This document shows positions 20,720 to 37,514 of a stretch of 64,000 bases of DNA, piece after piece. The stretch comes from an uncultured Clostridia bacterium (GTDB lineage Bacteria; Bacillota; Clostridia; TANB77; CAG-465), in assembly GCA_934169925.1 (NCBI GenBank), contig CAKPOO010000003.1, positions 62,847 to 126,846 of the forward strand. The letters are read 5' to 3'. The notes under the pieces were generated by a model. The model made no database searches, was not told the origin of the DNA, and saw only the letters and a list, made by a program, of their open reading frames with translations. The position numbers were made by a program, and so were the translations under genes. How positions within the stretch are numbered: position 1 is the stretch's first letter; each line of letters starts with the position of its first letter.

Positions 20720-21414
20720 TGGTTGAAAATAAAAAAAGCTTAATTGCTATAATTGTTTTTGCAGTTTCTTTGATTTTATTAATAGTTGTTTTAAGTGGTG
20801 GTTTATCATCACTTGGTATAGTATCTCTAAAAGGAATAGGTGCTAAAAGAAATGATTTAGTAACTGCTGAAAACAATTACACATCTAAAAAAGCTTCATA
20901 TGATAGTTCTTTTGAAAATATTGAAACAGCAGAAAAAAATTATGATGCACAAAAGAAAAAATATGATTCTATTAGCGATGAAACAGTAAATGTTATAAAA
21001 AAATCAGCTAGTAATGAAAAATATAGTATCGAATATATGTGGATTAAACTTGGTAACTATGCAAAAAAAGATAATTTATCAATAGTAATTGTAGAACCAG
21101 GAAATGATTCAAGTGATACTTCTAGTAGTACAACTACTTCTACTACAACAAGTGATACAGTAAGTTTAGATAATACTACTACAAAAGAAACTACAGTGGC
21201 AACTGCAAAAAGTAGTGAAACTACACAAACTTCTAATGGTGAACCTTTAAAAATTAAAGTAGAAGGTAGTTATTTAAATATTGCAGATTTTATATTTGCA
21301 TTAGAAAGTGATAGTGAACTTAAATTTAGAATAGATAATATTTCAATGGAATATGTATCAGGTACTACAATATCTACTACATTTGAAGTTAAAAATGTAA
21401 CTATCTCTAAATAG
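20719..21414 (+). CDS. PilO-like pilus assembly protein (bitopic, coiled coil, Ser/Thr-rich linker)
   Basis: 231 aa with an N-terminal TM, a coiled-coil region and a poly-Ser/Thr stretch. Start codon overlaps the pilM/N stop. Confidence 0.5.
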   Translation: MVENKKSLIAIIVFAVSLILLIVVLSGGLSSLGIVSLKGIGAKRNDLVTAENNYTSKKASYDSSFENIETAEKNYDAQKKKYDSISDETVNVIKKSASNEKYSIEYMWIKLGNYAKKDNLSIVIVEPGNDSSDTSSSTTTSTTTSDTVSLDNTTTKETTVATAKSSETTQTSNGEPLKIKVEGSYLNIADFIFALESDSELKFRIDNISMEYVSGTTISTTFEVKNVTISK

Positions 21415-21426
21415 AAAGGATGAAAA

Positions 21427-21789
21427 ATGGATAAGAAATATATATTAACATTTAGTATTTCAGTATTAGTATTAAGTTGTGTTGTTCTTTTATGTTTAAC
21501 ATTTTTAACACCTCAACAAACAGTTAATATAAATAGTTCATTAAAAGAGTATAACGGAATTAATAAAAATGATTATGCTTATACTCAAACTAAAGATATT
21601 AATGTTGATAATTTAGTAACTGAATATACAATTACAAACAATGAAATTTCTAAATTTAAAGGAAATTATCAATATGTTCCTGGTAATACAAATCCATTTT
21701 CTCCAGCTTCTGAATTATATGATGAAGATGGAAATTTGAAGAATAATACTAATTCAGGAAGTAGCTCAAGTAGTACAGCTGGAAAATAA
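21427..21789 (+). CDS. Hypothetical bitopic protein in the Tfp locus (possible PilP-like or minor component)
   Basis: 120 aa with an N-terminal TM. Confidence 0.35.
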   Translation: MDKKYILTFSISVLVLSCVVLLCLTFLTPQQTVNINSSLKEYNGINKNDYAYTQTKDINVDNLVTEYTITNNEISKFKGNYQYVPGNTNPFSPASELYDEDGNLKNNTNSGSSSSSTAGK

Positions 21790-21799
21790 GGAGTAAAAA

Positions 21800-22267
21800 A
21801 TGAGTTCTGACAAAAAAATGAAAGTGATAATAGGTATTCTTATTGCTATAATAATAGGAATAGTACTATTTATCACATTAACAGCAAAAACAAACAACGC
21901 AAAATTTGTAGACGATTTAATAAATACTCAAGCAAAAGTTTCAAAATATATAGGTCAAATTGAATCTGAAACTTTTAATGCTTATACAGAAGAGGAAATA
22001 ATATTAGGAAAAACAAATGAAGATAAGATAAAGAATATAAACGAAAAAGAATTAATACCTCTTGTAGATGAAGATAATAAAGTTGAAAATGGTACAGTTA
22101 AATATTATCCTATAAATGATGAAAATTTAAAAACACAATTTGGAATTGATTTATCTGAGTATTCAGAAATAAAATGGTATATATCTACTAATGGATATGT
22201 AAAAGTTAAATTAGAATCAAAACCAAAGTGGTGGTCTGCTAATTTTAATAGTTTAATTATTAATTAG
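21800..22267 (+). CDS. Hypothetical bitopic protein in the Tfp locus
   Basis: 155 aa with an N-terminal TM (VIIGILIAIIIGIVLFITL). Confidence 0.35.
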   Translation: MSSDKKMKVIIGILIAIIIGIVLFITLTAKTNNAKFVDDLINTQAKVSKYIGQIESETFNAYTEEEIILGKTNEDKIKNINEKELIPLVDEDNKVENGTVKYYPINDENLKTQFGIDLSEYSEIKWYISTNGYVKVKLESKPKWWSANFNSLIIN

Positions 22268-22326
22268 GTAAAAACATATATAATGTTTTTATATATATTT
22301 AGATTTTTTTAAGGGAGGTAAATTAT

Positions 22327-22896
22327 ATGAAAAATTCTAAAAAAGGTATTTCTTTAATAGTATTAGTTATAACAATCATCGTTATAATTATACTAGCTGC
22401 AGCAGTTATATTAACTATGCAAAAATCAAATCCTATTGCTGACGCAAGAACAGCAGTAGAAAAAGAAGATTACACAGAAGCACAAAATGCTTACAATATG
22501 TGGTTATCAAAAGTTATGGTAAAACAACTTGATACTGTAACATTCACTGGTTGGATTGGTGATATTTCAGATTTTAATGGTAAGACAAATGGTCATAGTT
22601 CATATTTAACTGATGGTAAAATAAATTCTATAACAACTAATGATTCATCATCAACTGCAACAACTCCACCAATAGTATCAACAGTAGGATTTGCAACTAG
22701 TTCACTTGCTAAATTAAATAGTGAAGTTATAACTAATTATGTTTCAACAGTAGATATTTCAAAATTAGGATTACCAGAACAAGTTAAAGCTATTTATGTA
22801 AAAGATAACAAAGTTATTGGATTATACAAAAATTCTACAGTTAGTTTCTTAAATCCTACTACTGATGTTATAACTGTTGATCAAACAATTGGTTAA
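22327..22896 (+). CDS. Type IV pilin-like protein, paralog 1 (class III-like signal KKG|ISLIV..., lacks Glu+5)
   Basis: 189 aa. Short basic leader ending in Gly followed by an approximately 25-residue hydrophobic helix. Residues 1-72 and the last 60 aa are nearly identical to the next ORF. Confidence 0.55.
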   Translation: MKNSKKGISLIVLVITIIVIIILAAAVILTMQKSNPIADARTAVEKEDYTEAQNAYNMWLSKVMVKQLDTVTFTGWIGDISDFNGKTNGHSSYLTDGKINSITTNDSSSTATTPPIVSTVGFATSSLAKLNSEVITNYVSTVDISKLGLPEQVKAIYVKDNKVIGLYKNSTVSFLNPTTDVITVDQTIG

Positions 22897-22919
22897 TTTA
22901 AAAATTATATAGGAGGAAA

Positions 22920-23513
22920 ATGATGAAAAATTCTAAAAAAGGTATTTCTTTAATAGTACTTGTTATAACAATCATCGTTATAATAATTCTTGCTGCAGCA
23001 GTTATATTAACTATGCAAAAATCAAATCCTATTGCTGATGCAAGAACTGCAGTAGAAAAAGAAGATTACACAGAAGCACAAAATGCTTACAATATGTGGT
23101 TATCAAAAGTTATGGTAAAACAACTTGATACTGTAGCTTTCAATGGTTGGATTGCAGCTGATGGTATTACAATGAGCACATATGCAGATACTGCAAAAGG
23201 TGGTGCAACTGGAGCTAATGGCAAAAGATTAAGTGATGGATATATTAAATCTCTAGATACAACTAAAGATGCAATTGATATAGACAAAACAATTACAGTT
23301 GGTTTTGCTACTAGTTCAAATGCTAGATTAAATAGTGATGTTGTAAATAATTTAGTAAGTAAAGTAACAATTTCTCAATTAGGATTACCAGAACAAGTTA
23401 ATGCTATTTATGTAGTTAATAATAAAGTTATTGGTTTATATAAAAATTCTACAATTAGTTTCTTAGATGTAGGTACTGATACAATAACTGTAGATCAAAC
23501 AACAACTAAATAA
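22920..23513 (+). CDS. Type IV pilin-like protein, paralog 2
   Basis: 197 aa. N-terminal 72 aa about 97% identical to paralog 1; conserved C-terminal block VGFATSS...LGLPEQV.AIYV..NKVIGLYKNST.SFL; divergent core. Confidence 0.55.
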   Translation: MMKNSKKGISLIVLVITIIVIIILAAAVILTMQKSNPIADARTAVEKEDYTEAQNAYNMWLSKVMVKQLDTVAFNGWIAADGITMSTYADTAKGGATGANGKRLSDGYIKSLDTTKDAIDIDKTITVGFATSSNARLNSDVVNNLVSKVTISQLGLPEQVNAIYVVNNKVIGLYKNSTISFLDVGTDTITVDQTTTK

Positions 23514-23582
23514 TTAAACATAGGTGAATTTTATGAAATAACTGTCGTTAGCAACATAAAATTTAAAGGATGAGTAATTTTT

Positions 23583-23631
23583 AAAGACATATACATATAT
23601 TCAATATGTGTATATGTCTTTAACCTTATAT
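23583..23631. promoter_or_regulatory. Near-perfect 22-bp-arm palindrome (hairpin or operator)
   Basis: aaagacatatacatatattcaatatgtgtatatgtcttt has one mismatch and no clear U-tract. It lies between the pilin genes and the pilD-remnant gene. Confidence 0.5.
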
Positions 23632-23723
23632 GTATTTGATATATTATATATTATGTATTTGTACATATTTTAGAATACATCTTTTTAAATGTAGTGTAAA
23701 ATGTGGATAAATAAGGAGGATAT

Positions 23724-24134
23724 ATGATTGTATTCTTAAATGTAATTTTAATTATTTGTATGTTTGTAATGGGATCTTTGTTTGGAAGTTTCTTTTCACT
23801 TGCAACATATAGATTACCTAGACATCAAGATATAATTGCTACTAGATCGTATTGTCCAAATTGTAAACATAGATTAAATTTTTTCGATTTAATACCTGTT
23901 TTTAGTTTTATATTTTTAGGTGATAAATGTAGGTATTGTAAACAAAAAATTAGTCCTAGATATTTTTTACTTGAAGTTTCTAATGGTTTACTGTTAGTTA
24001 TTTTATATCTAATTTTTGGATATACTATTAAACTTGCAATTATTTGGATTATTTATTCTTTTATTTTTGTTATTATTGGAGCTAAAATAATGGAAACAAA
24101 AATGTCAGATGAAGAGAAAAAGGAAGTGGAAAAG
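23724..24134 (+). CDS. Prepilin peptidase (PilD) N-terminal Zn-finger domain only; no A24 catalytic domain; in frame with the downstream pilin
   Basis: GSLFGSFFSLATYRLP...CPNCKHRL...LIPVFSFIFLGDKCRYCKQKISPRYFLLEV matches the PilD N-terminal domain, including its Cys tetrad. The region carrying the two catalytic Asp residues is missing. Confidence 0.6.
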
Positions 24135-24521
24135 ATGAAACTTTCAAAAAAATCTGGTGTGTTTATATCAGAACTTGTAATAGCTATAGTGTTATTTGCA
24201 ATTTTAATGATTTCAGTATTTACAATTTCAAGAAATTATACTAAAAATGCAACAGAAACAATTTTAAAATCTAATGCAAATGTAATTGCAGTAAAAAATC
24301 TTGAAATGTGTCTTGCAACGAAATATGATAAACTTGCATCATATACTTTACAAGAAAAGTTTCAAGATGTTACATATTCAGTAAATGTTAAAGTTGATTC
24401 TGTTTCAGATACTGATTTTTCAAAAAAGGATATAGTAAAAAAAGTTGAAGTAGAGGTAAGTTATATGCAAAATGGAGTAAAAAAGACACAAACTATTTCA
24501 ACACTAAAAGGTAAGGTGTAA
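24135..24521 (+). CDS. Prepilin-type minor pilin (MKLSKKSG|VFISELV..., canonical Glu+5)
   Basis: Internal ATG at 24135 within ORF 23724..24521. Class III signal with G|xxxxE and a hydrophobic helix. Confidence 0.55.
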   Translation: MKLSKKSGVFISELVIAIVLFAILMISVFTISRNYTKNATETILKSNANVIAVKNLEMCLATKYDKLASYTLQEKFQDVTYSVNVKVDSVSDTDFSKKDIVKKVEVEVSYMQNGVKKTQTISTLKGKV

Positions 24522-24524
24522 AAA

Positions 24525-24995
24525 ATGAAAAAAGGTATTACAATGCTTTCTTTAGTAATTTATGTTGTTTTATTTTTTGCATTTTCTGCAATTGCAATTT
24601 CTGTTTCTACGAATATGAATTTTAGGACATTATCAGAAAAAGGAATTATTTATTGCAATGAAGAGTTACAAAAATTACAATATAATTTACTAAATAGTGC
24701 TAAAAACAGTACATCTTGTGATATTATACAAAATACTTTTGTTTTTAGTAATGGTGATGAATATGTTTTTGATAGCAGTAATAAAAAAATATATAAAAAT
24801 GGAGGAACTCTTATTGATTCAATATCTAGTTGTTCTTCTATATCTGTATCAGAACTTAAGTCTACACCTGAAAATTTTGTATCAAATATAGACAAAGATG
24901 CAGAATATGTATGTTTAAATGTTGAATTTTCAAAATATAATCAAATTTTAAATACAGATTTATTTTTCAAGATAGGAGATGATACAGTTGAATAA
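24525..24995 (+). CDS. Minor pilin-like protein (MKKG|ITMLSLV..., no Glu+5)
   Basis: 156 aa with a pilin-like N-terminal helix and Cys residues in the C-terminal region. Confidence 0.4.
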   Translation: MKKGITMLSLVIYVVLFFAFSAIAISVSTNMNFRTLSEKGIIYCNEELQKLQYNLLNSAKNSTSCDIIQNTFVFSNGDEYVFDSSNKKIYKNGGTLIDSISSCSSISVSELKSTPENFVSNIDKDAEYVCLNVEFSKYNQILNTDLFFKIGDDTVE

Positions 24996-25209
24996 ATTAA
25001 AAAATATTTCAAAATTAAAAGGCTCTGGAATTTTGGTAGTAATTTTATCAGCTATTGCTTTTTCGATTTATTCAATGAGTGTTTTTTCAGAATCTAAACA
25101 TTTTAGTTTGATATTTAGTAAGTATGAAAAAAGTATATCAAATTATTATGAAAAAAATGTAAATGATGTAGATGGATTTTATGATTATATTTTAAAGTTA
25201 AATAAATAA
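24979..25209 (+). CDS. Small pilin-like protein
   Basis: 76 aa; LKGSGILVVILSAIAFSIYSMSVF is a pilin-like helix. Confidence 0.3.
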   Translation: MIQLNKLKNISKLKGSGILVVILSAIAFSIYSMSVFSESKHFSLIFSKYEKSISNYYEKNVNDVDGFYDYILKLNK

Positions 25210-25212
25210 TAG

Positions 25213-26868
25213 ATGGGAGTGTATGTTAAAATGTTTGAAAATGTTAGAGAAAAAAAGAGTCCAATAGGACTAGAGTTTATTAAACAAGGATTACTTACAG
25301 AATCTCAAGTTGATAGAGTTCTTGAATATCAAAGAGAACACAAAGAATTAAAATTTGCTGAAATTGTTGATGTTCTTGATATGTGTAATAAACAAAAATT
25401 ACTTGAAATTTTATCAGAAAAAATTAAAGTAACTATGGAACCACTAGAAGGAGATTTAGATATAAATCCTGTAGAATATTTACCAAGAGATATAATTATA
25501 AACTATAGAGTTATACCTTTTGATTTAGTTGGAAAAACTTTAAAAGTTGCTTTTTCTGATCCACTTGATGCAAACCGTGTAAGAGAAGTAGAACTTTTAC
25601 TTATGAACCAAGGTTACGATATGGAGATTTATGTTACATTATATACATCTATAATGAAACAAATTTCAAATTTAAAAAATGTTGGTACAAAATATGTTAA
25701 TAAAGAAGAAAAAGATGTAACTAAATTAATTGATAATATTATTTTAACAGGTATTGAAAAAAGAGCAAGTGATATTCACTTTGAACCAATGCAAAATAAA
25801 ATAAGAGTAAGATTTAGAATAGATGGTCAACTTGTAAATATAACTGAACTTCCAAAAGAAAGACAAGAACTTATCGCAGGAAGAATTAAGTCTATTTCTA
25901 ATATGTATCAAGAAATTCAAAATGACCAAGATGGTAGTATTGATACTTTTGATAACTATAGTATCCGTGTATCTAGCCAAAAAAATGTTAACGGAGAAAA
26001 GTTTGTTCTAAGACTTTTAAAGAAAAATACAGATGCAAAAGATTTATTTGAACTTGGATTTTTCAATGATAAAGAAACTATTGAAAAAGCATTTAACAAG
26101 AAAAATAGTATAATTCTTGTCTGTGCTCCTACTGGTGAAGGTAAAACTACAACTTTATATAGTGTTCTTGAATATTTAAATAGACCAGAAATAAACTTAA
26201 TTTCAATTGAAAACCCAGTTGAAAGAAGAATACCTGGTGTAAACCAAGTTGAAATTGGTGCAAATATAACATTTGCATCTGCATTAAGAACAGTTTTAAG
26301 ACAAGATCCAGATATAATTCTTGTTGGTGAAATACGTGATGAAGAAACTGCAAAAATAGCAATTGAAGCTGGTCAAACAGGTCACTTAGTTTTATCTACA
26401 ATACATACAATTGATGCTGTTGAAGCTATAACAAGACTTAGAAAAATGGGAATTTCTGATTATGATGTATCAGCAACACTAGTAACATCTATATCAGAAA
26501 GACTAGTAAGACGTTTATGTCCAAAATGTAAAAGACCTCATACTTTTACAGAAGATGAATTAAAATATATTCAAAGAGCAGAAAAAATTTCTGGAGTTAA
26601 TTTTGATTTAGAAAACGCACAACTTTTCGAACCAGTTGGTTGTGAATATTGTGATAATATTGGTTATTATGAAAGAATAGGTATATTTGAATTGTTATCT
26701 TTAGATGAGTATTTAAAAGATATGATTTCAAGTGGAAGATCAACTATTGATATTCGTAAATATGCAAAGGAAAATACAGGATATGAACCATTAGTTGTTG
26801 ACGGTATAAGAAAAGTATTAGAAGGAATTACTACAATAGATGAATTAAAAACAAAAATAACTCTATAA
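25213..26868 (+). CDS. pilB: Type IV pilus assembly ATPase PilB (GspE family)
   Basis: 551 aa. N-terminal GspE_N-like domain, Walker A CAPTGEGKTTTL, tetracysteine motif CPKC...CEYC, His box. An alternative ATG lies at 25231. Confidence 0.85.
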   Translation: MGVYVKMFENVREKKSPIGLEFIKQGLLTESQVDRVLEYQREHKELKFAEIVDVLDMCNKQKLLEILSEKIKVTMEPLEGDLDINPVEYLPRDIIINYRVIPFDLVGKTLKVAFSDPLDANRVREVELLLMNQGYDMEIYVTLYTSIMKQISNLKNVGTKYVNKEEKDVTKLIDNIILTGIEKRASDIHFEPMQNKIRVRFRIDGQLVNITELPKERQELIAGRIKSISNMYQEIQNDQDGSIDTFDNYSIRVSSQKNVNGEKFVLRLLKKNTDAKDLFELGFFNDKETIEKAFNKKNSIILVCAPTGEGKTTTLYSVLEYLNRPEINLISIENPVERRIPGVNQVEIGANITFASALRTVLRQDPDIILVGEIRDEETAKIAIEAGQTGHLVLSTIHTIDAVEAITRLRKMGISDYDVSATLVTSISERLVRRLCPKCKRPHTFTEDELKYIQRAEKISGVNFDLENAQLFEPVGCEYCDNIGYYERIGIFELLSLDEYLKDMISSGRSTIDIRKYAKENTGYEPLVVDGIRKVLEGITTIDELKTKITL

Positions 26869-26881
26869 TTTAGGAGGAAAA

Positions 26882-27979
26882 ATGGAAGCATTAGATTCAA
26901 TTTTGCAAAAAGCACTATCTTTAGGTGCTACAGATATTCATATTATTGTTGGTCAATTACCAATTTATAGAATAAGACGTGAACTTGTTTATGATCAATC
27001 AAAATTACCAATGTCAAAATCTACTATTTTAAAAATAATGGAGTACTTTTATGAAAATTATCCAACTTTAAAAGATGATTTTGAAGAAGATAAACAAGTT
27101 GACTTTACTTATTCATACATGGAAAATAGATTTAGAATTAATATATCTTTATCAAAAAGTAATCCTACTTTTTCTATTAGGGTTATACCTAATGGAAGTA
27201 TAAAAGTTAGAGATTTAGGATTAATTGATATAATAAATAAGATGAGAACTATTCAAAGTGGTTTAATCTTAGTTACAGGTAAAATTAATTCTGGAAAAAC
27301 TACAACTATGAATGCATTCATACAAGAAGTAAATAAATCTGATAAGAAAAAAATTGTTACACTAGAAGATCCAATAGAATATGAACACATATCTCAGGAA
27401 TCTGTTGTTATTCAAAAAGAAATAGGAAAAGAACTTGATGTAAAAGATTATAAATCAGGTCTTATAAACCTACTTAGAGAAGATGCTGATATTGCCGTAA
27501 TTGGAGAAATAAGAGATAGAGAAACAATGGACGTTGCTTTAGATCTTGCAGAATCAGGGGGACTTGTTGTAGGTACACTTCATACTCGTTCTTGTGGTGA
27601 AACATTAGAAAGAATTCTTTCTTTATATGATGGTAGTGAAAAAGCTGCTATAAAAAATACTTTGTCATCTGTTTTAAAAATGGTAATTTCTCAAAAATTA
27701 ATCATAAGTAAACAAAATGAATTACTTATGGTACCAGAAATAATGATGGTAAACACTGTATTAGCAGCTATAATACGACAAGAAAAGTTTAATATTGGTG
27801 ATATAGAAGATTCTATACATTCACAAAATGATATAGGATGTGTTAGTTTTGAACAATCTTTTACAGATCTTTATATAAGAAATTTAGTTGATTTAAAGAC
27901 TATAAAAGAAAATGTTGATCCAGAAAGATTTAAAATTATTAAAAATCTAATAATAAGTTCTGGTGTATCACTTGAGTAA
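26882..27979 (+). CDS. pilT: Twitching-motility / pilus retraction ATPase PilT
   Basis: 365 aa. LVTGKINSGKTTT (Walker A), GEIRDRETM (Asp box), VVGTLHT; length typical of PilT. Confidence 0.8.
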   Translation: MEALDSILQKALSLGATDIHIIVGQLPIYRIRRELVYDQSKLPMSKSTILKIMEYFYENYPTLKDDFEEDKQVDFTYSYMENRFRINISLSKSNPTFSIRVIPNGSIKVRDLGLIDIINKMRTIQSGLILVTGKINSGKTTTMNAFIQEVNKSDKKKIVTLEDPIEYEHISQESVVIQKEIGKELDVKDYKSGLINLLREDADIAVIGEIRDRETMDVALDLAESGGLVVGTLHTRSCGETLERILSLYDGSEKAAIKNTLSSVLKMVISQKLIISKQNELLMVPEIMMVNTVLAAIIRQEKFNIGDIEDSIHSQNDIGCVSFEQSFTDLYIRNLVDLKTIKENVDPERFKIIKNLIISSGVSLE

Positions 27980-28025
27980 TTTTTTTATTTATAATATAAT
28001 GAATTTATGTGGAAGGAGATAAAAG

Positions 28026-29381
28026 ATGCCAAGTTATAAATATAGAGTAATATATGAAGATGGAAAAATTGGTAGAGGCAGAATACTTGCTAAAAGTAAG
28101 GCTCATGCTATTGAAAGTTTAAAAAATGATAATGTTCAACCTGTATCTATTCAAAGACAGAATGATCCACATAAGAGATTTAAAAAAATTGATTATAAAA
28201 GATTAGTAAGATCTCAAATTATGAAAAATCAGAATTCGAGAGAAAAACATACTCAAAAGGAAAAGATTGATTGGAAAAACTTAACTTTAAGAGACTTAAA
28301 AAAATTAGAATTTCATCCTTTTAGACATGTTACTAGTAAAGATATAATTTCTTTTGTTAATAACTTTTATATATTAAAAAAGGCAAAATTTAATAATGTT
28401 CAAGCTTTAGAAGCTTTATATAATGGTGTAACAAATCCTGCTTTCAAATCTATAGTTGAAGATTTATTAATAGGAGTTCAAGATGGTGAAAAAATATATA
28501 AGATAATGATGAGTTATCCTAAAGTTTTCCCACCAATATTTGTTAATTTCATAAAAGTTGGTGAAGAGTCTGGTACACTTGATAGTGCACTTATATATGC
28601 AAGAGATTATGTAGAAAGTTCTATGGCTTTAAAAAAGAAAATAAGAGCGTCTGTTATTCCAAGAGTTTTACAATTCTTTGGTATAATTATCATGATGTGC
28701 GTAGCTGTTGTTATTGGTGTACCGATGTTACAAGATGTTTATGACATGTTTGATTCATCTGCTGAAATACCAGCTGCTACAATGGGACTTTTAAATGCAG
28801 TTAACTGGTTAATTGCAAATTGGTATTGGGTAGTACTAGGAATTGGTGTTGTAGTATTTGGTTTCTTAGCTATTATAAGTACGACAAGAGGCAGATATAA
28901 TTGGGATAAGTTCTTATTTAGGTGTCCAGTGCTTGGAAATGTTATAAGGAATATAACAATTGAGAAGTTTTTTCTTGCAATGCTTCTTAACTTAAAAAAT
29001 GGTTTAAGATTACAAGAAAGTTTAGAGATATCAAAAACTGTTACAAACAATCTATTTTTCTTATCAACAGTAGAAATTGCAAAAGCAAATGCTATAACAG
29101 GTGAATCTTGGATTACACCTTTTGTGGATAATAAAATATTTACACCTATGATGTCACAAATGGTATCAGTAGGTATGAAAACAGATATTGTTGAAATGAT
29201 AGAGAAAGTAAATGTATATATAAGACAAGAAATTGATGAATCAGTTGCAAAATTTGTTAAAGTTTTACCTGATATTACATATCTTTTTGTTGGTATAGCA
29301 TTGATTGCCTTTGTTATAACAATTGTTGTTCCAATAATTGGAGTATACATGGGAAGTTTCATAACAATCGATAGTTATTAA
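28026..29381 (+). CDS. pilC: Type IV pilus inner-membrane platform protein PilC (GspF family)
   Basis: 451 aa with two T2SF-type repeats separated by TM helices and a typical N-terminal cytoplasmic domain. Confidence 0.75.
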   Translation: MPSYKYRVIYEDGKIGRGRILAKSKAHAIESLKNDNVQPVSIQRQNDPHKRFKKIDYKRLVRSQIMKNQNSREKHTQKEKIDWKNLTLRDLKKLEFHPFRHVTSKDIISFVNNFYILKKAKFNNVQALEALYNGVTNPAFKSIVEDLLIGVQDGEKIYKIMMSYPKVFPPIFVNFIKVGEESGTLDSALIYARDYVESSMALKKKIRASVIPRVLQFFGIIIMMCVAVVIGVPMLQDVYDMFDSSAEIPAATMGLLNAVNWLIANWYWVVLGIGVVVFGFLAIISTTRGRYNWDKFLFRCPVLGNVIRNITIEKFFLAMLLNLKNGLRLQESLEISKTVTNNLFFLSTVEIAKANAITGESWITPFVDNKIFTPMMSQMVSVGMKTDIVEMIEKVNVYIRQEIDESVAKFVKVLPDITYLFVGIALIAFVITIVVPIIGVYMGSFITIDSY

Positions 29382-31020: not shown

Positions 31021-31824
31021 ATGAAAAAATTAAGTAACTTTGATTTAAAAGTATTTGCAATTATTTTTATGATTATAGATCATATTGGATACTTTTTTAG
31101 TTTTGCTTTAAGTAGTGATGTATATATAACTTTTAGAATAATTGGAAGATTGGCTATGCCAATCTTTGCTTATTTAGTAGCAGAGGGAATCTATTATACA
31201 AAAGATATAAAAAAGTATATAGCAAGACTTGGAATTTTTGCTATAGTAACTCAAGCATTACTTATTTTAATAGATTATATACAAGTAAAAATTGGAAATA
31301 TAAAACTTGCAAATATATCAAGTAGTGCAAATATATTATTTTCCTTTATGTTTGCTGCTATAGTCATTATGCTTATTTGTAAGTTTATAGAAAAAGCAAA
31401 AATAACATTTTTTGTAAAAAATAAAAATTTAAAGTTAAAAGATATATTAAGAAATGTAGTAGTTATGTTTTTTGAATTTTTAGCTGTTATATTTATTTTT
31501 GTATTATTTAAAATTTTAAAATTTGATTATGGAATAAATGCTTTTTTACTTGTTGTTTTAATATCAATTATAAATAAAATATATAAAATAAGAAATATAG
31601 AAAGAATAGGAAATGTAAGTTATTATATACTTGTATTTTTAAGTTTGTTTTTACTTTGTTTTCCTCTTAAAAATTATTCATATATAAGACTATTTTCTAT
31701 TGTATTTATTTTATTTTATAGCGGAAAAAAAGGAAAATATAGCAAATATTTATTTTATATTGCATATTTGTTACAATATGTAATCATTTCAATTAGTTCT
31801 ATAATTGTATTCATGCATTTTTAA
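31021..31824 (+). CDS. TraX-family membrane protein (F-pilin acetylase family)
   Basis: 267 aa. N-terminal LKVFAIIFMIIDHIGYFF matches the TraX family signature; polytopic. Confidence 0.65.
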   Translation: MKKLSNFDLKVFAIIFMIIDHIGYFFSFALSSDVYITFRIIGRLAMPIFAYLVAEGIYYTKDIKKYIARLGIFAIVTQALLILIDYIQVKIGNIKLANISSSANILFSFMFAAIVIMLICKFIEKAKITFFVKNKNLKLKDILRNVVVMFFEFLAVIFIFVLFKILKFDYGINAFLLVVLISIINKIYKIRNIERIGNVSYYILVFLSLFLLCFPLKNYSYIRLFSIVFILFYSGKKGKYSKYLFYIAYLLQYVIISISSIIVFMHF

Positions 31825-31948
31825 TATATTGTTTACATAAACACTTTACAAGAAAAAATTATTGTGGTATAATTCGAATATCACAGTAATTTTTTTTTAC
31901 AAAAAACATAAGATTAATTATATAATGTCCAAAGGAGGAAATTTTATA

Positions 31949-32623
31949 ATGGAAAATTATAATGAAAACAATTTAATAAAAATTGCAGGTAAAGTGGTAG
32001 AAGAACCTGTATTTAGTCATGAATTATATGAGGAAAAGTTTTATATACTTTATATTGAAACAAGAAGACTTAGTCAATATTCAGACAAATTACCAGTAAT
32101 AATATCAGAAAGATTATATGATATATCAAATATAAAAAAGGATGATATTTTTTATATTGAAGGTCAATTTAGATCATATAACAAATTAAATGAAGGAAAA
32201 AGTAAATTAATTTTATCTATATTTGCAAGAGAATTTGTAAAAAAAGATGATGAAGAAATTTTAACTTTAAATGATGCTAATTTTGTAGGGTTTATATGCA
32301 AGCAACCTATATATAGAAAAACTCCACTTGGAAGAGAAATTGCAGATGTTTTAGTTGCAGTTAATCGTTCATATAAAAAATCAGATTATATACCATGTAT
32401 ATTATGGGGAAGAAATGCTAAATTTTGTGAAACATTACCTGTTGGTTCAAAAGTAAAAATTAGTGGAAGAATCCAATCAAGAAAATATGAAAAGAAAAAT
32501 CAAGATGGTACTGTTATACCAAAAGTTGCATATGAAATATCTGTTTCAAAATTTTCTATTGCAAAAGATGAAAATGTAGAAGATGTTAAAGTTGATGATA
32601 ATAATAATGATAATGTAAAATAG
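31949..32623 (+). CDS. SSB-like protein with two tandem OB folds
   Basis: ORF 31862..32623. ATG at 31949 follows aaggagga and an extended -10 tggtataat. The C-terminal half (VAVNRSYKKSDYIPCILWGRNAKFCE...ISGRIQSRKYEKKNQDG...AYEISVSKFSI) resembles SSB core motifs, and the N-terminal half repeats the pattern. Confidence 0.55.
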   Translation: MENYNENNLIKIAGKVVEEPVFSHELYEEKFYILYIETRRLSQYSDKLPVIISERLYDISNIKKDDIFYIEGQFRSYNKLNEGKSKLILSIFAREFVKKDDEEILTLNDANFVGFICKQPIYRKTPLGREIADVLVAVNRSYKKSDYIPCILWGRNAKFCETLPVGSKVKISGRIQSRKYEKKNQDGTVIPKVAYEISVSKFSIAKDENVEDVKVDDNNNDNVK

Positions 32624-33182: not shown

Positions 33183-33378
33183 AATATCACCATTTCTATT
33201 TTAGCGTGATAATATTTATTTGTAAAGAAAATTTGTATGTCAAATATTGACAAGATTACATAATTTAAAAATTAGAATTAATTTAAATTAAATTATATTA
33301 AAAATGTGAAAAAATACTTGATTTTTATTTCTCAAATGTTATAATTAAACTGTAGAAGTTAGTTTAAGGAGGAAATTT

Positions 33379-33795
33379 ATGAAAAGTTCAAAAAAATTCT
33401 TATTAAGAATAATACCAGTTTTTGTTGTTTTAAGCATAATATTAACTTCAGTAACAGGAGTTTTTGCATTTGGTAATTTTAATGATATTTCTGAGATTAA
33501 TAAAGGTGCAGGAACTACTGGTGATGGTGTTACATCTGTTAATGGTGCTGTAAATAGAGTATGGAAAACTGTTGTAACTGTTTTACAAATATTAGCAGTT
33601 GCTGCAATAGTTATAGCTGGTGTAAGATATATGTTTGCTTCAGCTGATACAAAAGCTGATATAAAAGGACAAACAGTTGGACTTGTTGTTGGTGCTGTAC
33701 TTGTTTTCGGTGCATCATTTATCGTTCAATTTATTATTAATGTTACTTCAGATGTTACAGGGGTAAAAGAATCACAACAAACACAACAACAATAA
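33379..33795 (+). CDS. VirB2/TrbC-like T4SS pilin paralog 1
   Basis: 138 aa. Signal peptide followed by two hydrophobic helices (TVVTVLQILAVAAIVIAGVRYMF / VGLVVGAVLVFGASFIVQFII) separated by a short charged loop, which is the VirB2 topology. Confidence 0.55.
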   Translation: MKSSKKFLLRIIPVFVVLSIILTSVTGVFAFGNFNDISEINKGAGTTGDGVTSVNGAVNRVWKTVVTVLQILAVAAIVIAGVRYMFASADTKADIKGQTVGLVVGAVLVFGASFIVQFIINVTSDVTGVKESQQTQQQ

Positions 33796-33844
33796 TAATG
33801 TTTTTATAAAATCAGGCTTGACCTGATTTTTTTATTAAAGATAG

Positions 33845-34234
33845 GTGAGATTTATGAATAAATTTAAAATCTTTGCAATAGTCATACTTGTTATTACTTT
33901 ATTTTTAACATTATATCCAGTGGTGTATGCAGATTTTGGAGAAGGTTTTGATCCTAGTAAGGTTGCATATGATAAAGTGTTAGAGGATGATACAGGTGTT
34001 GGAAAAATTACAAGCCCTATAAACAAAATTTTTAATACAATAGTTAGAATTTTACAAATTTTGTCTATTGCAGGAATAATATTAACAGGTCTTAGATATA
34101 TGCTTACAACTGATACTTTAAAAAAAGCAGATTTTAAAGAATCTACTATGTATTTGATAATAGGTATGGTTATAGTATTTTGTGCAAGTACAGTAATTGA
34201 ATTTATTGTAAAAGCTGCAGATGAAGTAATATAG
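33845..34234 (+). CDS. VirB2/TrbC-like T4SS pilin paralog 2
   Basis: 129 aa with the same architecture; the conserved motif IL.ILQI(L/V)S(I/V)A...I.TGL(R/K)YM is shared with paralogs 1 and 3. Confidence 0.55.
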   Translation: MRFMNKFKIFAIVILVITLFLTLYPVVYADFGEGFDPSKVAYDKVLEDDTGVGKITSPINKIFNTIVRILQILSIAGIILTGLRYMLTTDTLKKADFKESTMYLIIGMVIVFCASTVIEFIVKAADEVI

Positions 34235-34254
34235 TAAAAGGAGGATTAAGATAC

Positions 34255-34629
34255 ATGAATAATAGTTACAAAATATTATTTAAAATAATGGCTATTGTAT
34301 TTATAGGTATCATTATTGCAAGTAATGTTAGCATTGTTTTTGCAGATGATCTTTCTGATTTTAACAGTACAGATTTTAATGCTGGAGAAGAAAGCGTAGA
34401 AAAGATTGATACTGCCGTTCTTAAAATTTGGAAAACAGTTGTTACAATTTTACAAATTGTTTCTGTTGCAGCTGTTATTATTACTGGACTTAAGTATATG
34501 TTTGCATCATCAGAGAAAAAAGCTGACATAAAATCTATGTCACTTGGATTTATTGTTGGGGCAGTTATTGTCTTTGGATCTTCGTTTGTTGTATCCTTTG
34601 TTATAAAAGTTGTACAAGATACAATATAA
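34255..34629 (+). CDS. VirB2/TrbC-like T4SS pilin paralog 3
   Basis: 124 aa, same architecture. Confidence 0.55.
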   Translation: MNNSYKILFKIMAIVFIGIIIASNVSIVFADDLSDFNSTDFNAGEESVEKIDTAVLKIWKTVVTILQIVSVAAVIITGLKYMFASSEKKADIKSMSLGFIVGAVIVFGSSFVVSFVIKVVQDTI

Positions 34630-34731
34630 TAAGCTTAAATATTAATAAAAAATCTACTTTTTCATTAAAAAAAGTAGATTTTTTTTTACTTTATTGATAT
34701 AATTTGTATGTGAAAATAGAGAGGTTATTTT

Positions 34732-35700
34732 ATGAACAAAAAGATATTTAGTATAGTTATTATGAGCATAGTATTTTTTGCTATGATAGGTGGCAATGTA
34801 TTTGCATGGGTAGAGTCTGATGACGTATCAAGTTTAAGGAGTGATGAAATAGCAGAAAATATAAAAAGTAGTTTTAATAGTAAAAATATAGATGATTTTT
34901 TTTGCTATGTAAATTATGGATATAGTGATTTATCATCTGAGCAAAAAGAAGAAGTTGATCCATTGATAGAATATTCAGTAAAAAATTATAAAAGTCAGCT
35001 ACTAAGTGCTACAAATAAATTAGATCCTACTGAAGATCCAATAAGTTCACAACTTGATAGTGTTTGGAATAAATTTGAAGGTGGAAAGAGCTTTACTTCT
35101 AATGCGTCATCTGGTTCAAAGTCAGACGATGATAAGAAAAAAGCTGCTGATGATTGGTTTGGTCAAGCTACTTCTTGGTGGGGAGATGCTAAAAAAAGTG
35201 GATTTACAATTCCACAAGAAGCTCAGGATGTAATAGATCAATTTACCGATATGATTAACATTATAGGTACAACTTTAATATTTGTTGCAACAATTGTTCT
35301 TGGAATTAAATTTATATTTGGAAGTATTGATGGAAAATCTGAAGCAAAGGAAGATATGATTACTTTACTTGTAGCTTGTGTATTTTTCTTTGGATGGAAT
35401 GGAATAATGGGGATTCTTTTAAATAATGCTCATGATGACATTGCAATAGTTGAAGGTGAAACTAGTTACGTAACTGTAATTTCTAAAATGTTAACTGTAT
35501 TTAGAACAATTTCAAATTGTTTACTTGTTGTTGGTGTTATTTATGTAGGTATAAAATTTATATTTGCTGGTGCACAGGGAAAAGCAGATTTAAAAGCAAA
35601 ATCTGGTTTTTTTATAATTGGTATTATACTTGCATTTTGTACAGTAAATGTTCTTACTTTCTTATCAGATGTTATAAATCAAGTATTAACAAAAACATAA
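34732..35700 (+). CDS. Secreted/membrane protein with an N-terminal soluble domain and two tandem C-terminal VirB2-like hairpin modules
   Basis: 322 aa with a signal peptide. The C-terminus carries two copies of the ...IKFIFG(S/A)..GK..(A/L)K... TM-hairpin motif found in the three small pilins. Confidence 0.45.
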   Translation: MNKKIFSIVIMSIVFFAMIGGNVFAWVESDDVSSLRSDEIAENIKSSFNSKNIDDFFCYVNYGYSDLSSEQKEEVDPLIEYSVKNYKSQLLSATNKLDPTEDPISSQLDSVWNKFEGGKSFTSNASSGSKSDDDKKKAADDWFGQATSWWGDAKKSGFTIPQEAQDVIDQFTDMINIIGTTLIFVATIVLGIKFIFGSIDGKSEAKEDMITLLVACVFFFGWNGIMGILLNNAHDDIAIVEGETSYVTVISKMLTVFRTISNCLLVVGVIYVGIKFIFAGAQGKADLKAKSGFFIIGIILAFCTVNVLTFLSDVINQVLTKT

Positions 35701-35727: not shown

Positions 35728-36129
35728 ATGGGAAAATCTTATTATGTTCCACGTAGTGTTAAAGGTGAGACAAGAATACTTATTATATTTACAGTTAAGT
35801 CATTTATTTTTACTCTTGCTTTTGGACTTATAGGTGGTGGAATTTGGGCTTTAGGCTCAAATCTATTTGGAATGGGAATGTTTCCAGGAATTGCAGTTAC
35901 AATTTTATTTGGAGGATTTGGTTATTTAATTGGTACAGCTAAAATACCTGATTCACCAATAATGGGACCATTTCAAAAAGCTGGTGGTGAATATGTTAGT
36001 GAAATAATTAAAAGATTTATCACTTTTAAATCAAGAAAAAAAATATATTTATATAATTACAATAGAGAAAATATAATTAATAATAAAAATAATAAAAATA
36101 GTAGTAATAACAAAGGAGGAAAAAAATAA
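35728..36129 (+). CDS. PrgI-family (VirB3-like) small membrane protein
   Basis: 133 aa. N-terminal YYVPRSVKGETRILIIFTVKSF fits the PrgI-family N-terminal pattern; two TM helices; sits just upstream of the VirB4 gene. Confidence 0.55.
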   Translation: MGKSYYVPRSVKGETRILIIFTVKSFIFTLAFGLIGGGIWALGSNLFGMGMFPGIAVTILFGGFGYLIGTAKIPDSPIMGPFQKAGGEYVSEIIKRFITFKSRKKIYLYNYNRENIINNKNNKNSSNNKGGKK

Positions 36130-37514
36130 TGCCTTATATTCTTTTAGGAGTTCTAGGTATATTTGGTGTAGTATTTTATTTTTATAATAAATCACAAACA
36201 AAAAAGGAAGATACTTCAAATATATCAAATAAAGATAAAGATAAAAATAAAAATTCATCTTCTGGTACTAAATCAGCAGATGTAAAAAAAGATGATGTAT
36301 TCAATTTTATGGAATTTGATAAAATTCAAGATGGTATGATTGTTCAAAATAAAGGAACAAAATATACAATGGCAATTAAATGTAAAGGGGTTAACTATGA
36401 CTTAATGTCTGATGTTGAACAACTTGCAGTAGAAGAAGGATTTATTACTTTTTTAAATACTTTAAGATATCCAATTCAATTATATGTACAAGCACAAAAT
36501 ATTGATTTAAAAGGTGCTATTAATACATACAAAAATAATGTAGCAAATATTAATGATGAATTTAATCAAATTGATAGAGAATATCAAAAAGTTCTTGAAT
36601 CATTTGAAGCTTCTGAAGAAGATATTGATAAAATTGAAAAAGAAAGAAGTAAAGTAAAAAATGTTTATGAATATGCAAACGATATTATAAACTACGTAGA
36701 AGTATTAGGATCTAATAAAGCATTATTACAAAGAAGCTTTTATGTTTTATTATCATACTATACTTCTGAGATAAATGCTTCAAGTAACTTTAGTAAAGAA
36801 GAAGTTGTTAATATGTGTTATAACGAACTTTTAACAAGAGCAAAAGGTATTTGTAGTGCACTTGCAGGTTGTGGAGTTGAAGGTAAAGTATTAAACTCAA
36901 ATGAACTTGCAGATCTATTATATAATGCATATAACAGAGATGATAAAGGATTAATTGATGTTAAAAATGCGTTAGAATCAGGATTTTATAGATTATATTC
37001 TACATCAAAAGATGCTTATGAGAAAAAAGAAGAACTATTAGAAGCAGAAATTGAGAAAAAAGCAAAATTAAAAGCATATAAAGCAATTAAAACTTCAATA
37101 GAAAATGGTACATACGTTTCTGATAAAGCAAAAGAATTGCAAAACGAAGAAGTTGTAAGTAGAGTTGCAACTGAAATAGTAAAAAGAGAAGATGTTCCAG
37201 TTGAAGTAAAAAAAGATGCTCAAAAAAATATAATAGAGGAATATAGACAAGATAAAAGAAAAATATTACTTGAAATAAATGATGAAAAACAAGAAAAGTT
37301 ATCAGAAGCTAATAAAGAAATTGAAAATTTGACAGGGGAAAAAGCAACTACTCAAGAAACAAATAAAGTTGAAGAAACTGCAAAAGATGTTGCAAAAGAA
37401 ATCACAAAACAAGAACTAGATTTAAGAAATGAAGAAGAAAATATTGCTCCTGTTTCTAATAATAAAGTAAATGAAAATTTCTTTGATGATTCAGAAGATG
37501 ATAGTATAATTTAA
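36129..37514 (+). CDS. Membrane-anchored coiled-coil protein of the T4SS-like cluster
   Basis: 461 aa with an N-terminal TM, a Lys/Asp-rich linker, and long predicted coiled coils in the C-terminal half. Translationally coupled to the upstream gene. Confidence 0.45.
   Translation: MPYILLGVLGIFGVVFYFYNKSQTKKEDTSNISNKDKDKNKNSSSGTKSADVKKDDVFNFMEFDKIQDGMIVQNKGTKYTMAIKCKGVNYDLMSDVEQLAVEEGFITFLNTLRYPIQLYVQAQNIDLKGAINTYKNNVANINDEFNQIDREYQKVLESFEASEEDIDKIEKERSKVKNVYEYANDIINYVEVLGSNKALLQRSFYVLLSYYTSEINASSNFSKEEVVNMCYNELLTRAKGICSALAGCGVEGKVLNSNELADLLYNAYNRDDKGLIDVKNALESGFYRLYSTSKDAYEKKEELLEAEIEKKAKLKAYKAIKTSIENGTYVSDKAKELQNEEVVSRVATEIVKREDVPVEVKKDAQKNIIEEYRQDKRKILLEINDEKQEKLSEANKEIENLTGEKATTQETNKVEETAKDVAKEITKQELDLRNEEENIAPVSNNKVNENFFDDSEDDSII

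Follow-up and report, generated by a model that had tools for sequence, protein, structure and literature searches.

Candidate VirB2/TrbC-family pilins, including a tandem pilin, in a chromosomal type IV secretion gene cluster of uncultured gut Clostridia

Introduction

Type IV secretion systems (T4SSs) of monoderm bacteria have been considered to be almost devoid of VirB2-type pilins. Pilin homologues were not found in the monoderm mating-pair formation (MPF) classes (Guglielmini et al., 2014; PMC4027160), and a 2025 FEMS review regarded Patescibacteria as the sole Gram-positive exception, unique in their potential for conjugative pili (PMC12857230). In Patescibacteria, arrays of 2-11 divergent VirB2 genes (∼25% mean identity) occur together with abundant TrsD and few relaxases, and the origin of these pilins, including co-option from diderm systems, was left open by the authors (PMC12102498). 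Here, we describe four co-directional open reading frames (ORFs) on the + strand, at 33379-35700 of a 64-kb stretch of DNA from an uncultured Clostridia bacterium (contig CAKPOO010000003.1; the whole stretch is called the window below). The ORF list gave them lengths of 138, 129, 124 and 322 aa, and they are designated pil1, pil2, pil3 and dbl. We consider it very probable that they encode pilins of the VirB2/TrbC family. A first-pass annotation of this DNA had called such pilins unusual in Gram-positive systems, in agreement with both surveys (PMC4027160, PMC12857230), and a full VirB2 array in Clostridia stands against the view that Gram-positive T4SSs other than those of Patescibacteria have none.

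By analogy, the pilin-array T4SS found in Patescibacteria (Southlakia epibionticum and TM7x; PMC12102498, PMC12857230) comes closest to the present system. Both systems have a monoderm host, MPF_FATA-like VirB3/PrgI, TrsD, VirB4 and VirB6 components and tandem arrays of divergent VirB2-like pilins (here three single pilins and one tandem pilin, 29-45% identical), and both lie on the chromosome, usually lack a relaxase and are accompanied by type IV pili. On the other hand, the host here belongs to Clostridia that retain the spoIIIA sporulation operon, the VirB6-like paralogs are multiplied, essentiality is known only for Southlakia, and a tandem double-hairpin pilin is not mentioned in the text of PMC12102498 and PMC12857230 on those arrays. 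We found neither this chromosomal system nor the tandem pilin described in the literature. The family call itself is not new, because automated annotation by Pfam and the Joint Genome Institute (JGI) already labels some such proteins TrbC/VirB2; what is new relative to the known systems is the conserved tandem pilin and the multiplied VirB6-like paralogs, in Clostridia. The locus also allows the origin of the patescibacterial system (PMC12102498) to be considered against a case from Firmicutes.

Two other groups of proteins are relevant to the comparison. Agrobacterium VirB2, RP4 TrbC and F TraA (PF04956; 8cue, 8exh) share with the present pilins a signal peptide followed by a hairpin, a place beside VirB3/VirB4 and the Pfam match, and in both cases the charged loop would line the lumen and the termini would face outward. 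However, the Sec leader is 25-30 aa here and 40-50 aa there, and the present system appears not to be mobile, has no TraF-type cyclase in its gene cluster and is without a conserved C-terminal motif, outer membrane or VirB5. The Mbov_0395/Mbov_0396/Mbov_0397 trio of the Mycoplasma integrative and conjugative element (ICE) (NF045849, NF045889, NF045975) shows the same order of pilin-like, polytopic transmembrane (TM) and VirB4 proteins, and the non-Pfam matches of pil2, pil3, L537, p461 and VirB4 are all to this trio; yet the scores here are well below the cut-offs (for example, 21.8 versus 40), and those ICEs are mobile and have a single pilin-like gene.

Identification of the pilin array

The VirB2/TrbC assignment holds because Pfam scores, hairpin homology and topology all point to it. 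With a gathering threshold of 27.9 bits for Pfam TrbC (PF04956), pil1, pil2, pil3 and dbl scored 31.2, 36.9, 23.9 and 33.9 bits, respectively, so that three of the four ORFs lay above the threshold. The first-pass annotation had proposed the VirB2/TrbC conjugative-pilin family and named this Pfam model as the one to search; these three scores, together with the VirB3, VirB4 and VirB6 homologues directly downstream, bear the proposal out. In addition, pil2 reached 38.9 bits on T4SS_pilin (PF18895; threshold 26.6 bits), and pil3 was recognized by the pilin-hairpin hidden Markov model (HMM) with 108 bits. No holin family matched at E ≤ 1 and every non-pilin Pfam match was far below its own cut-off, so no family in Pfam scores comparably in support of the holin or other small-membrane family that had been named as the refuting alternative. 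All NCBIfam matches of the pilins were sub-threshold and all were to pilin or T4SS models (VirB2 PRK13857, the Mycoplasma-ICE 'Mbov_0395 pilin-like' family and pLS20_p028); for the Mbov_0395 pilin-like model (NF045849; cut-off 40 bits) they amounted to 21.8 bits for pil2 and 15.9 bits for pil3, short of membership. When the pilin profile was compared with the PDB, the sole T4SS matches were the solved VirB2 pili 8cue/8exh, in register but not significant (E ∼4).

The topology of the ORFs agrees with this assignment. In a Kyte-Doolittle scan, all four begin with a Lys-rich n-region and a hydrophobic core that ends at VFA, VYA, VFA and VFA, respectively (the signal-peptide calls are based on hydropathy and A-x-A-type sites), beyond which the small ORFs have two TM-like segments each and the 322-aa ORF has four. 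In pil1, the predicted signal covers aa 1-30, with cleavage expected after VFA, and the mature protein starts with a hypervariable stretch (aa 31-61); the loop ASADTKADIK is conserved. An AlphaFold2 (AF2) model of pil1 from a 32-sequence alignment consisted of the signal helix, a disordered stretch (aa 33-49) and helices at aa 50-86 and 92-127, with a predicted local distance difference test (pLDDT) score of 70-82 in the helices, joined by the 5-residue loop ASADT. The signal peptide and the two hydrophobic helices with a short Lys/Asp loop described by the first-pass annotation were thus found again, by hydropathy in all three small ORFs and by AF2 in pil1. Its common core motif also stood in general, except for the first residue, which is V rather than I in ORF1. 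The existence of three small ORFs was likewise upheld; the second is most likely 126 rather than 129 aa, as translation probably starts at ATG 33854 and not at GTG 33845, because the GTG lies inside the AGGTGAG ribosome-binding site (RBS) and gene callers give 126 aa on related contigs. Within the array, pil2 is 29% and pil3 45% identical to pil1, and the variable segment of pil2 corresponds to aa 25-60. For pil1, 465 homologues could be detected, some of which were annotated as VirB2/TrbC by JGI. Hundreds of homologues share the same loop and helix motifs without change, and K92 and K96 in the loop are invariant in the homologue alignment. Pfam scans identified no S26/TraF-like peptidase in the cluster, and the pilins have no conserved C-terminal processing motif.

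The fourth gene, dbl, encodes a tandem pilin (Table 1). Its TrbC match falls in two stretches, the HMM built on the small-pilin hairpins detected both of its hairpins (26 and 37 bits), and alignment of the small-pilin and dbl-family profiles by hhalign gave a probability of 99.1% (E 9e-19) over hairpin 2; comparison of the dbl-family profile with the PDB found nothing relevant, and an exact-sequence look-up of the 322-aa protein gave no entry. The AF2 model, of which only the secondary structure was used, contained a helical head (aa 37-97, pLDDT ∼80) and helix pairs at 162-200/204-231 and 246-278/281-321. More than 120 homologues of dbl were found at 90% clustering, most of them 205-222 aa long and made up of a signal peptide and two hairpins with little or no head, and the motifs invariant in the family include DFW..A..WF, GTT, ACVFFFGW and YVG.KYIF.GA.GK. 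The gene was present in all 40 related loci described below, in two copies in L032 and L040, and was always the last pilin gene. On these comparisons tandem pilins form a separate, conserved family, and the N-terminal domain of dbl, as judged from the homologues, is a lineage-specific hypervariable insert that is missing from most of them. Of what had initially been said about the 322-aa ORF, the two hairpin copies hold, whereas the 'soluble N-domain' is this insert and not a general feature.

By profile comparison, pilin-like hairpins also extend past the four pilin ORFs: there are four more, one in each of the VirB6-like paralogs downstream, which the first-pass annotation had missed. Each of these hairpins lies at about aa 122-200 and scores 17-24 bits on PF18895, below its threshold; against the small pilins, hhalign gave 75% (E 2.5e-5).

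Conservation and chromosomal location of the cluster

A scan of one genome per species, in which the window proteins were placed by tblastn, yielded 40 related loci, all of them in metagenome-assembled genomes (MAGs) of uncultured Clostridia from the gut of animals (rabbit, human, sheep, deer and chicken), including Clostridium sp. CAG:465, CAG:921 and CAG:1219. The gene order was kept as pgi, (TraX), a single-stranded DNA-binding protein (SSB), M23 on the - strand, 2-4 single pilins, the tandem pilin, VirB3, TrsD-like, VirB4, 1-4 VirB6-like, p317, p201, p289 and p1339. Identity to the window across the loci was 76-86% for VirB4, 67-72% for pgi, 57-73% for SSB, 47-73% for the VirB3-like protein, 39-64% for the first pilin (which in every related locus best matched pil1), 33-49% for the tandem pilin and 25-50% for the VirB6-like proteins. 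The window is low-GC chromosome with ∼25% G+C throughout, and the G+C content of the T4SS cluster equals that of its surroundings. It also encodes RNase R, formate-tetrahydrofolate ligase (FTHFS), an SNF2 helicase, the spoIIIA operon, pgi, DnaE, YchF and MurC.

No relaxase, coupling protein or integrase was found in the 64-kb window, in which all ORFs of at least 300 aa could be assigned. Within ±10 kb of the related loci, no relaxase or type IV coupling protein (T4CP) was detected in L001, L003 and L004, and no integrase in L001 and L003. In a plasmid collection, tblastn found no relative of pil1 or dbl, and viral contigs searched with the pilin alignment contained no relative of pil1. Because the same order and flanks occur in ∼40 species, VirB4 is better kept than pgi and no plasmid or viral copies were found, the cluster is, by these comparisons, a vertically inherited and strongly constrained chromosomal system, and we have good confidence that it belongs to the non-mobile core of these genomes. 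It does not appear to be a conjugation module of the ordinary type, given that genes for a relaxase, a coupling protein and an integrase are missing from its vicinity.

The VirB4 proteins of this clade formed one 50%-identity cluster, and an exhaustive search placed their next relatives at about 40% identity or less. Most of the nearest relatives are metagenomic proteins; the nearest named ones belong to Firmicutes: Clostridium plasmids (41%), Heliorestis and a Peptostreptococcaceae MAG (32-37%). The next relatives lie on Clostridium and Bacillus plasmids and ICE-like elements that have the same layout, with one small pilin-like ORF before VirB3. From this relationship, conjugative T4SSs of the Firmicutes branch seem to be the source of the cluster, and a VirB2-like gene would be a general but overlooked part of that branch.

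On four elements (a C. botulinum plasmid, two metagenomic elements and a Heliorestis chromosomal element), an unannotated pilin-like ORF was observed 5' of VirB3 (L005 9225-9641, L049 1807-2208, L050 8599-8928 and L051 7717-8073). These lone ORFs score 18-25.5 bits on PF18895, just under its threshold. Their occurrence suggests that VirB2-like proteins may be common in the Firmicutes T4SS lineage and have been overlooked.

Sequence variation and expression signals

Contig L001, from the same species, served as reference for a strain comparison that includes two or three alleles in all. L001 and the window share 96-98% DNA identity, and at the amino acid level pgi, VirB4 and VirB3 are 99%, 99.6% and 100% identical, respectively. 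Divergence was limited to five segments, all predicted to be extracytoplasmic (Table 1), whereas the signal peptides, helices and cytoplasmic/lumenal loops of the pilins were 94-100% identical. Under the VirB2 topology, the variable segments are predicted to be the mature N-termini, the head of dbl and its inter-hairpin linker, that is, the outer surface of a pilus. Whole-gene ratios of non-synonymous to synonymous substitution rates (dN/dS) were 1.3, 1.0 and 1.2 for pil1, pil2 and pil3, compared with 0.05-0.15 for pgi, PilB, PilC and VirB4. In aa 31-61 of pil1, dN was 0.55 and dS 0.23; in the head of dbl, dN was 0.61 and dS 0.78. The idea of a heteropolymeric or variant pilus, raised in the first-pass annotation, is consistent with hypervariability that is confined to predicted surface segments.

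Several expression signals, all of them consensus or pattern matches and thus suggestive, were found around the pilin genes (Table 1). A strong AAGGAGG RBS precedes the ATG of pil1 at 33379. A terminator-like structure after the first pilin was observed in 19 of the 40 related loci, compared with 11% of random 90-nt windows. The hairpins after pil1 and pil3 are predicted to split the pilin genes into separately attenuated units, a layout that would be typical of a subunit made in excess over the machinery. No convincing inverted repeats of the invertible-promoter type could be identified around the pilin genes. A further observation concerns the 15-nt motif AATTTGTATGTSAAA, which occurs only twice in the 64 kb, at 33230-33244 (5' of pil1) and at 34701-34715 (5' of dbl). 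Its expected number of occurrences is 0.26, and two were reached in 1 of 100 shuffles; the first copy overlaps the palindrome TGTCAAATATTGACA. The motif may represent a shared operator.

Proposed function and alternative explanations

On balance, we favor the reading that the four ORFs encode VirB2/TrbC-family pilins that serve as subunits of a surface-exposed filament or conduit, built by a chromosomally fixed and vertically inherited T4SS of uncultured low-GC gut Clostridia. Family membership, gene context, vertical conservation and the location of the hypervariable segments are observed, and from them we infer polymerisation, subunit roles and the function of the system. That the product is an exposed filament appears only slightly better than an even chance, and the assignment of specific roles to individual subunits is tentative.

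According to the proposed mechanism, Sec would export each pilin, with cleavage after VFA/VYA, and the pilin would be kept in the membrane as a helical hairpin whose two ends face outward and whose Lys-rich loop faces inward. The VirB3/TrsD/VirB4 ATPase module might then pull the pilins out onto a VirB6-like platform, where they would polymerise into a filament exposed on the surface, or a tube spanning the wall, that passes through an opening made by the M23 hydrolases. The bulk of the structure could be formed by pil1, a candidate major subunit because its gene comes first, is the most conserved and is flanked by a promoter-like site and strong RBS of its own on one side and a terminator-like hairpin on the other. 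The fast-evolving pil2 and pil3 would serve as minor or alternative subunits. VirB5 fills the tip, adhesin or nucleating role in Gram-negative systems; here, dbl, with two covalently linked protomers and a variable head, would most likely act as tip, adhesin or nucleator in place of the missing VirB5.

The machine would probably function in contact or exchange with another cell or a host surface, or in DNA import. By analogy, contact or exchange as in Patescibacteria or in Bartonella Trw might be favored by the surface variation. Like the present system, Trw is without a coupling protein and has multiple sequence-variable copies of pilus subunits (PMC12857230), and its variant surface pili are thought to serve adhesion rather than translocation (PMC12857230). 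In contrast, Trw is a Gram-negative, plasmid-derived (R388-like) system that amplifies whole VirB2 and VirB5 copies and has no tandem fusion. DNA import as in the archaeal Ced or the Helicobacter ComB system might be favored by the invariably adjacent two-OB SSB and by the lack of a relaxase and T4CP. Ced/Ted and ComB (PMC9905601, PMC12857230) are likewise chromosomal and relaxase-less and possess VirB2-, VirB6- and VirB4-like parts, and a role in DNA handling would fit the conserved SSB next to the present cluster; however, they have no tandem pilin, and no specific sequence relationship could be shown. A match to the NCBIfam CedD model reached only 27.8 bits against a cut-off of 600.

Several points weigh against the filament reading or against parts of it. 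The TrbC score of pil3 is below the Pfam threshold. A Foldseek comparison of the pil1 AF2 model with the PDB gave no match at E < 1 and only generic helical hairpins, which is uninformative because a helical hairpin is too generic a fold, and the AF2 model of dbl is of low overall confidence (pLDDT 61, predicted template modelling score 0.34). The hypervariability is a pattern seen in two or three alleles, and the variation in the dbl head suggests allele exchange by recombination, not proven positive selection, because dS is also high. The relaxase and T4CP are absent from the 64-kb window and from ±10 kb in relatives, which is the part of the genomes that this result covers. A filament has yet to be seen in this clade, which has no cultured member, and pilins do not prove a pilus, because Gram-negative T4SSs that produce none need VirB2 as well (PMC12857230).

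The last point leads to the most serious competing explanation, namely that the ORFs are true VirB2 homologues that form only a short stalk or channel lining across the membrane and thick peptidoglycan, with no long pilus, a role that has been proposed for VirB2 in Gram-negative T4SSs lacking a pilus. The requirement of VirB2 for substrate transfer even without a pilus (PMC12857230) speaks for it, the pilin-like hairpin in the VirB6-like paralogs suggests an intramembrane assembly platform, and the two M23 hydrolases suggest local opening of the wall. We nevertheless regard this explanation as unlikely, albeit not negligible: hypervariability exactly in the would-be outermost segments implies selection from outside, and a separately terminated, strongly signalled pil1 suggests far more pilin than machinery. 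It might also be considered that the cluster is the MPF module of an integrated conjugative element whose relaxase, coupling protein and integrase lie beyond the window, so that the ORFs would be ordinary conjugative pilins. An SSB gene does adjoin the cluster, and the nearest VirB4 relatives (31-41% identity) are found on plasmids and ICE-like elements of Clostridium, Bacillus and other Firmicutes, which have the layout small pilin-like ORF, VirB3, TrsD-like, VirB4, VirB6-like and hydrolase. An element of this kind is difficult to reconcile with the identical chromosomal position and housekeeping flanks in ∼40 species, the higher conservation of VirB4 than of pgi, the G+C content shared with the surroundings, the lack of an integrase, relaxase or T4CP in the 64 kb or in ±10 kb in L001 and L003, and the lack of plasmid or viral copies of the pilins, and we consider it very improbable. 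Still less credible is that hydrophobic composition alone makes the small ORFs resemble VirB2 and that they encode small membrane proteins of another kind, for instance holins or generic two-TM proteins. Hydrophobic helices do give low-level matches to many membrane families, Foldseek was non-specific and the PDB profile match to VirB2 (E ∼4) is not significant alone; but two independent curated pilin models were matched above threshold with other families far below theirs, the motifs of the loop and helices do not vary among hundreds of homologues, the place beside VirB3/VirB4 is kept in every locus, and the VirB2/TrbC annotation of homologues by JGI was made independently.

Taken in full, the hypothesis of a pilus in these organisms is that spore-forming gut Clostridia, as the second monoderm group after Patescibacteria, carry a core, relaxase-less T4SS that builds a VirB2-type pilus with a double pilin whose exposed head and linker swap between strains; we place this combined statement a little short of an even chance. 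If it is true, VirB2 pilins would be ancestral, or at least widespread, in the Firmicutes T4SS branch, with which the lone plasmid and ICE pilin-like ORFs agree, and non-conjugative T4SS pili would mediate contact between cells or with the host, or DNA import, in the gut. A machine that is better conserved than a glycolytic enzyme and stripped of conjugation-specific parts suggests that these abundant but uncultured gut bacteria use a T4SS pilus for a housekeeping-like purpose other than conjugation. In addition, a natural covalently linked pilin dimer could inform the packing of VirB2 protomers, and phage or host immunity may target the surface segments that vary between strains.

Secretion genes and other features of the window

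The coordinates of the pilin genes, their variable segments and the neighboring genes are shown in Table 1.

Table 1 Features of the pilin array and the surrounding T4SS cluster (window coordinates; identities of variable segments are to L001)
Feature	Position	Strand	Basis or remark
TraX-family acyltransferase	31021-31824	+	Pfam; two genes upstream of pilins
SSB, two OB folds	31862-32623	+	Pfam; part of conserved left flank
Small M23 peptidase, 166 aa	32682-33182	-	Pfam; divergently transcribed
Promoter-like site (TTGATT, 16 nt, TG-extended TATAAT)	33318-33345	+	Consensus match only; 5' of pil1
pil1, 138-aa VirB2/TrbC-family pilin, candidate major subunit	33379-33795	+	TrbC above threshold, AF2, hydropathy
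Variable segment, pil1	33500-33559		57% DNA identity
Terminator-like hairpin and T-run right after pil1	33808-33830	+	
pil2, pilin paralog, 126 aa from ATG 33854 (129 aa if GTG 33845)	33854-34234	+	PF18895, TrbC
Variable segment, pil2	33920-34039		73-88% DNA identity
pil3, 124-aa pilin paralog	34255-34629	+	Sub-threshold TrbC; 45% identity to pil1; hairpin HMM
Variable segment, pil3	34340-34399		88% DNA identity
Hairpin with 20-bp perfect stem and T-run after pil3, then extended -10-like TGATATAAT before dbl	34643-34688	+	
dbl, 322-aa tandem pilin	34732-35700	+	TrbC 33.9 bits in two stretches, HMM, hhalign, AF2
dbl signal peptide	aa 1-25		
dbl hypervariable helical head	aa 26-150 (34807-35181)		
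Variable segment, dbl head	34820-35179		48-62% DNA identity
dbl hairpin 1	aa 162-231 (35215-35424)		
dbl variable linker	aa 233-250		
Variable segment, dbl linker between hairpins	35420-35479		73% DNA identity
dbl hairpin 2	aa 246-321 (35467-35694)		
VirB3/PrgI-like small membrane protein	35728-36129	+	Pfam PrgI E 0.017 (below threshold), two TM, directly upstream of VirB4 module
TrsD-like p461, one N-terminal TM	36129-37514	+	NCBIfam VirB4_plasma model positions 97-271
VirB4-type ATPase, 670 aa	37538-39550	+	Pfam P-loop_TraG, AAA_10, DUF87
Four VirB6-like polytopic paralogs, 537/549/544/486 aa	39579-46039	+	PF18895 17-24 bits, TM map
Three membrane-anchored proteins, 317/201/289 aa	46058-48518	+	No family matches; conserved in cluster
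Membrane-anchored M23 peptidoglycan hydrolase, 1339 aa	48535-52554	+	Pfam Peptidase_M23 76.8 bits

Downstream of the pilins, p461 is considered TrsD-like because its soluble part matches the N-terminal domain of VirB4 models, and its homologue in L003 carries Pfam PF26593 (TraC-like). The VirB4-type ATPase has intact Walker A (GKSGAGKS) and Walker B (VLVDEAW) motifs, matches the PDB VirB4 structure 4ag5 with E 2e-23 and scores 209 bits on the NCBIfam CD1110-family VirB4 model, below its 325-bit cut-off. It was also observed that VirB4 is seemingly split, with p461 covering positions 97-271 and the 670-aa ATPase positions 292-876 of the Mycoplasma-ICE VirB4 model; pGO1 and Patescibacteria have been noted for a corresponding TrsD-plus-VirB4 arrangement. 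The four VirB6-like paralogs are 36-44% identical to one another, combine a large, variable ectodomain with a conserved TM pair at the C-terminus, and match NCBIfam Mycoplasma-ICE TM protein families below cut-off. By position and topology, p317, p201 and p289 are candidates for VirB8-like or scaffold proteins, and the 1339-aa M23 hydrolase is, by its domain content, a functional analogue of VirB1.

Upstream of the array, SSB and the small M23 gene are found immediately 5' of the pilins in every related locus that reaches far enough upstream, an adjacency that is kept even in L003 and L028, whose further left flank differs. The SSB-like protein with two OB folds is without the canonical C-terminal tip. 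The small M23 peptidase was called at only 66 aa in the near-identical strain (L001 7949-8149), compared with 166 aa here; the gene may have suffered a frameshift or become a pseudogene there, or the assembly may be at fault. Among related loci long enough to include the position of TraX, about half have the gene. TraX belongs to the family of the F-pilin N-acetylase, and its dN/dS between strains (0.67) is unusually high for the neighborhood. We considered TraX as a possible pilin acetylase and left it as a lead only, because it is adjacent in only about half of the loci. Finally, a complete type IV pilus cluster was observed at 19046-29381, just upstream of pgi and the T4SS, which comprises PilM/N-like proteins, several small ORFs (candidate minor pilins), a prepilin peptidase, PilB, PilT and PilC.

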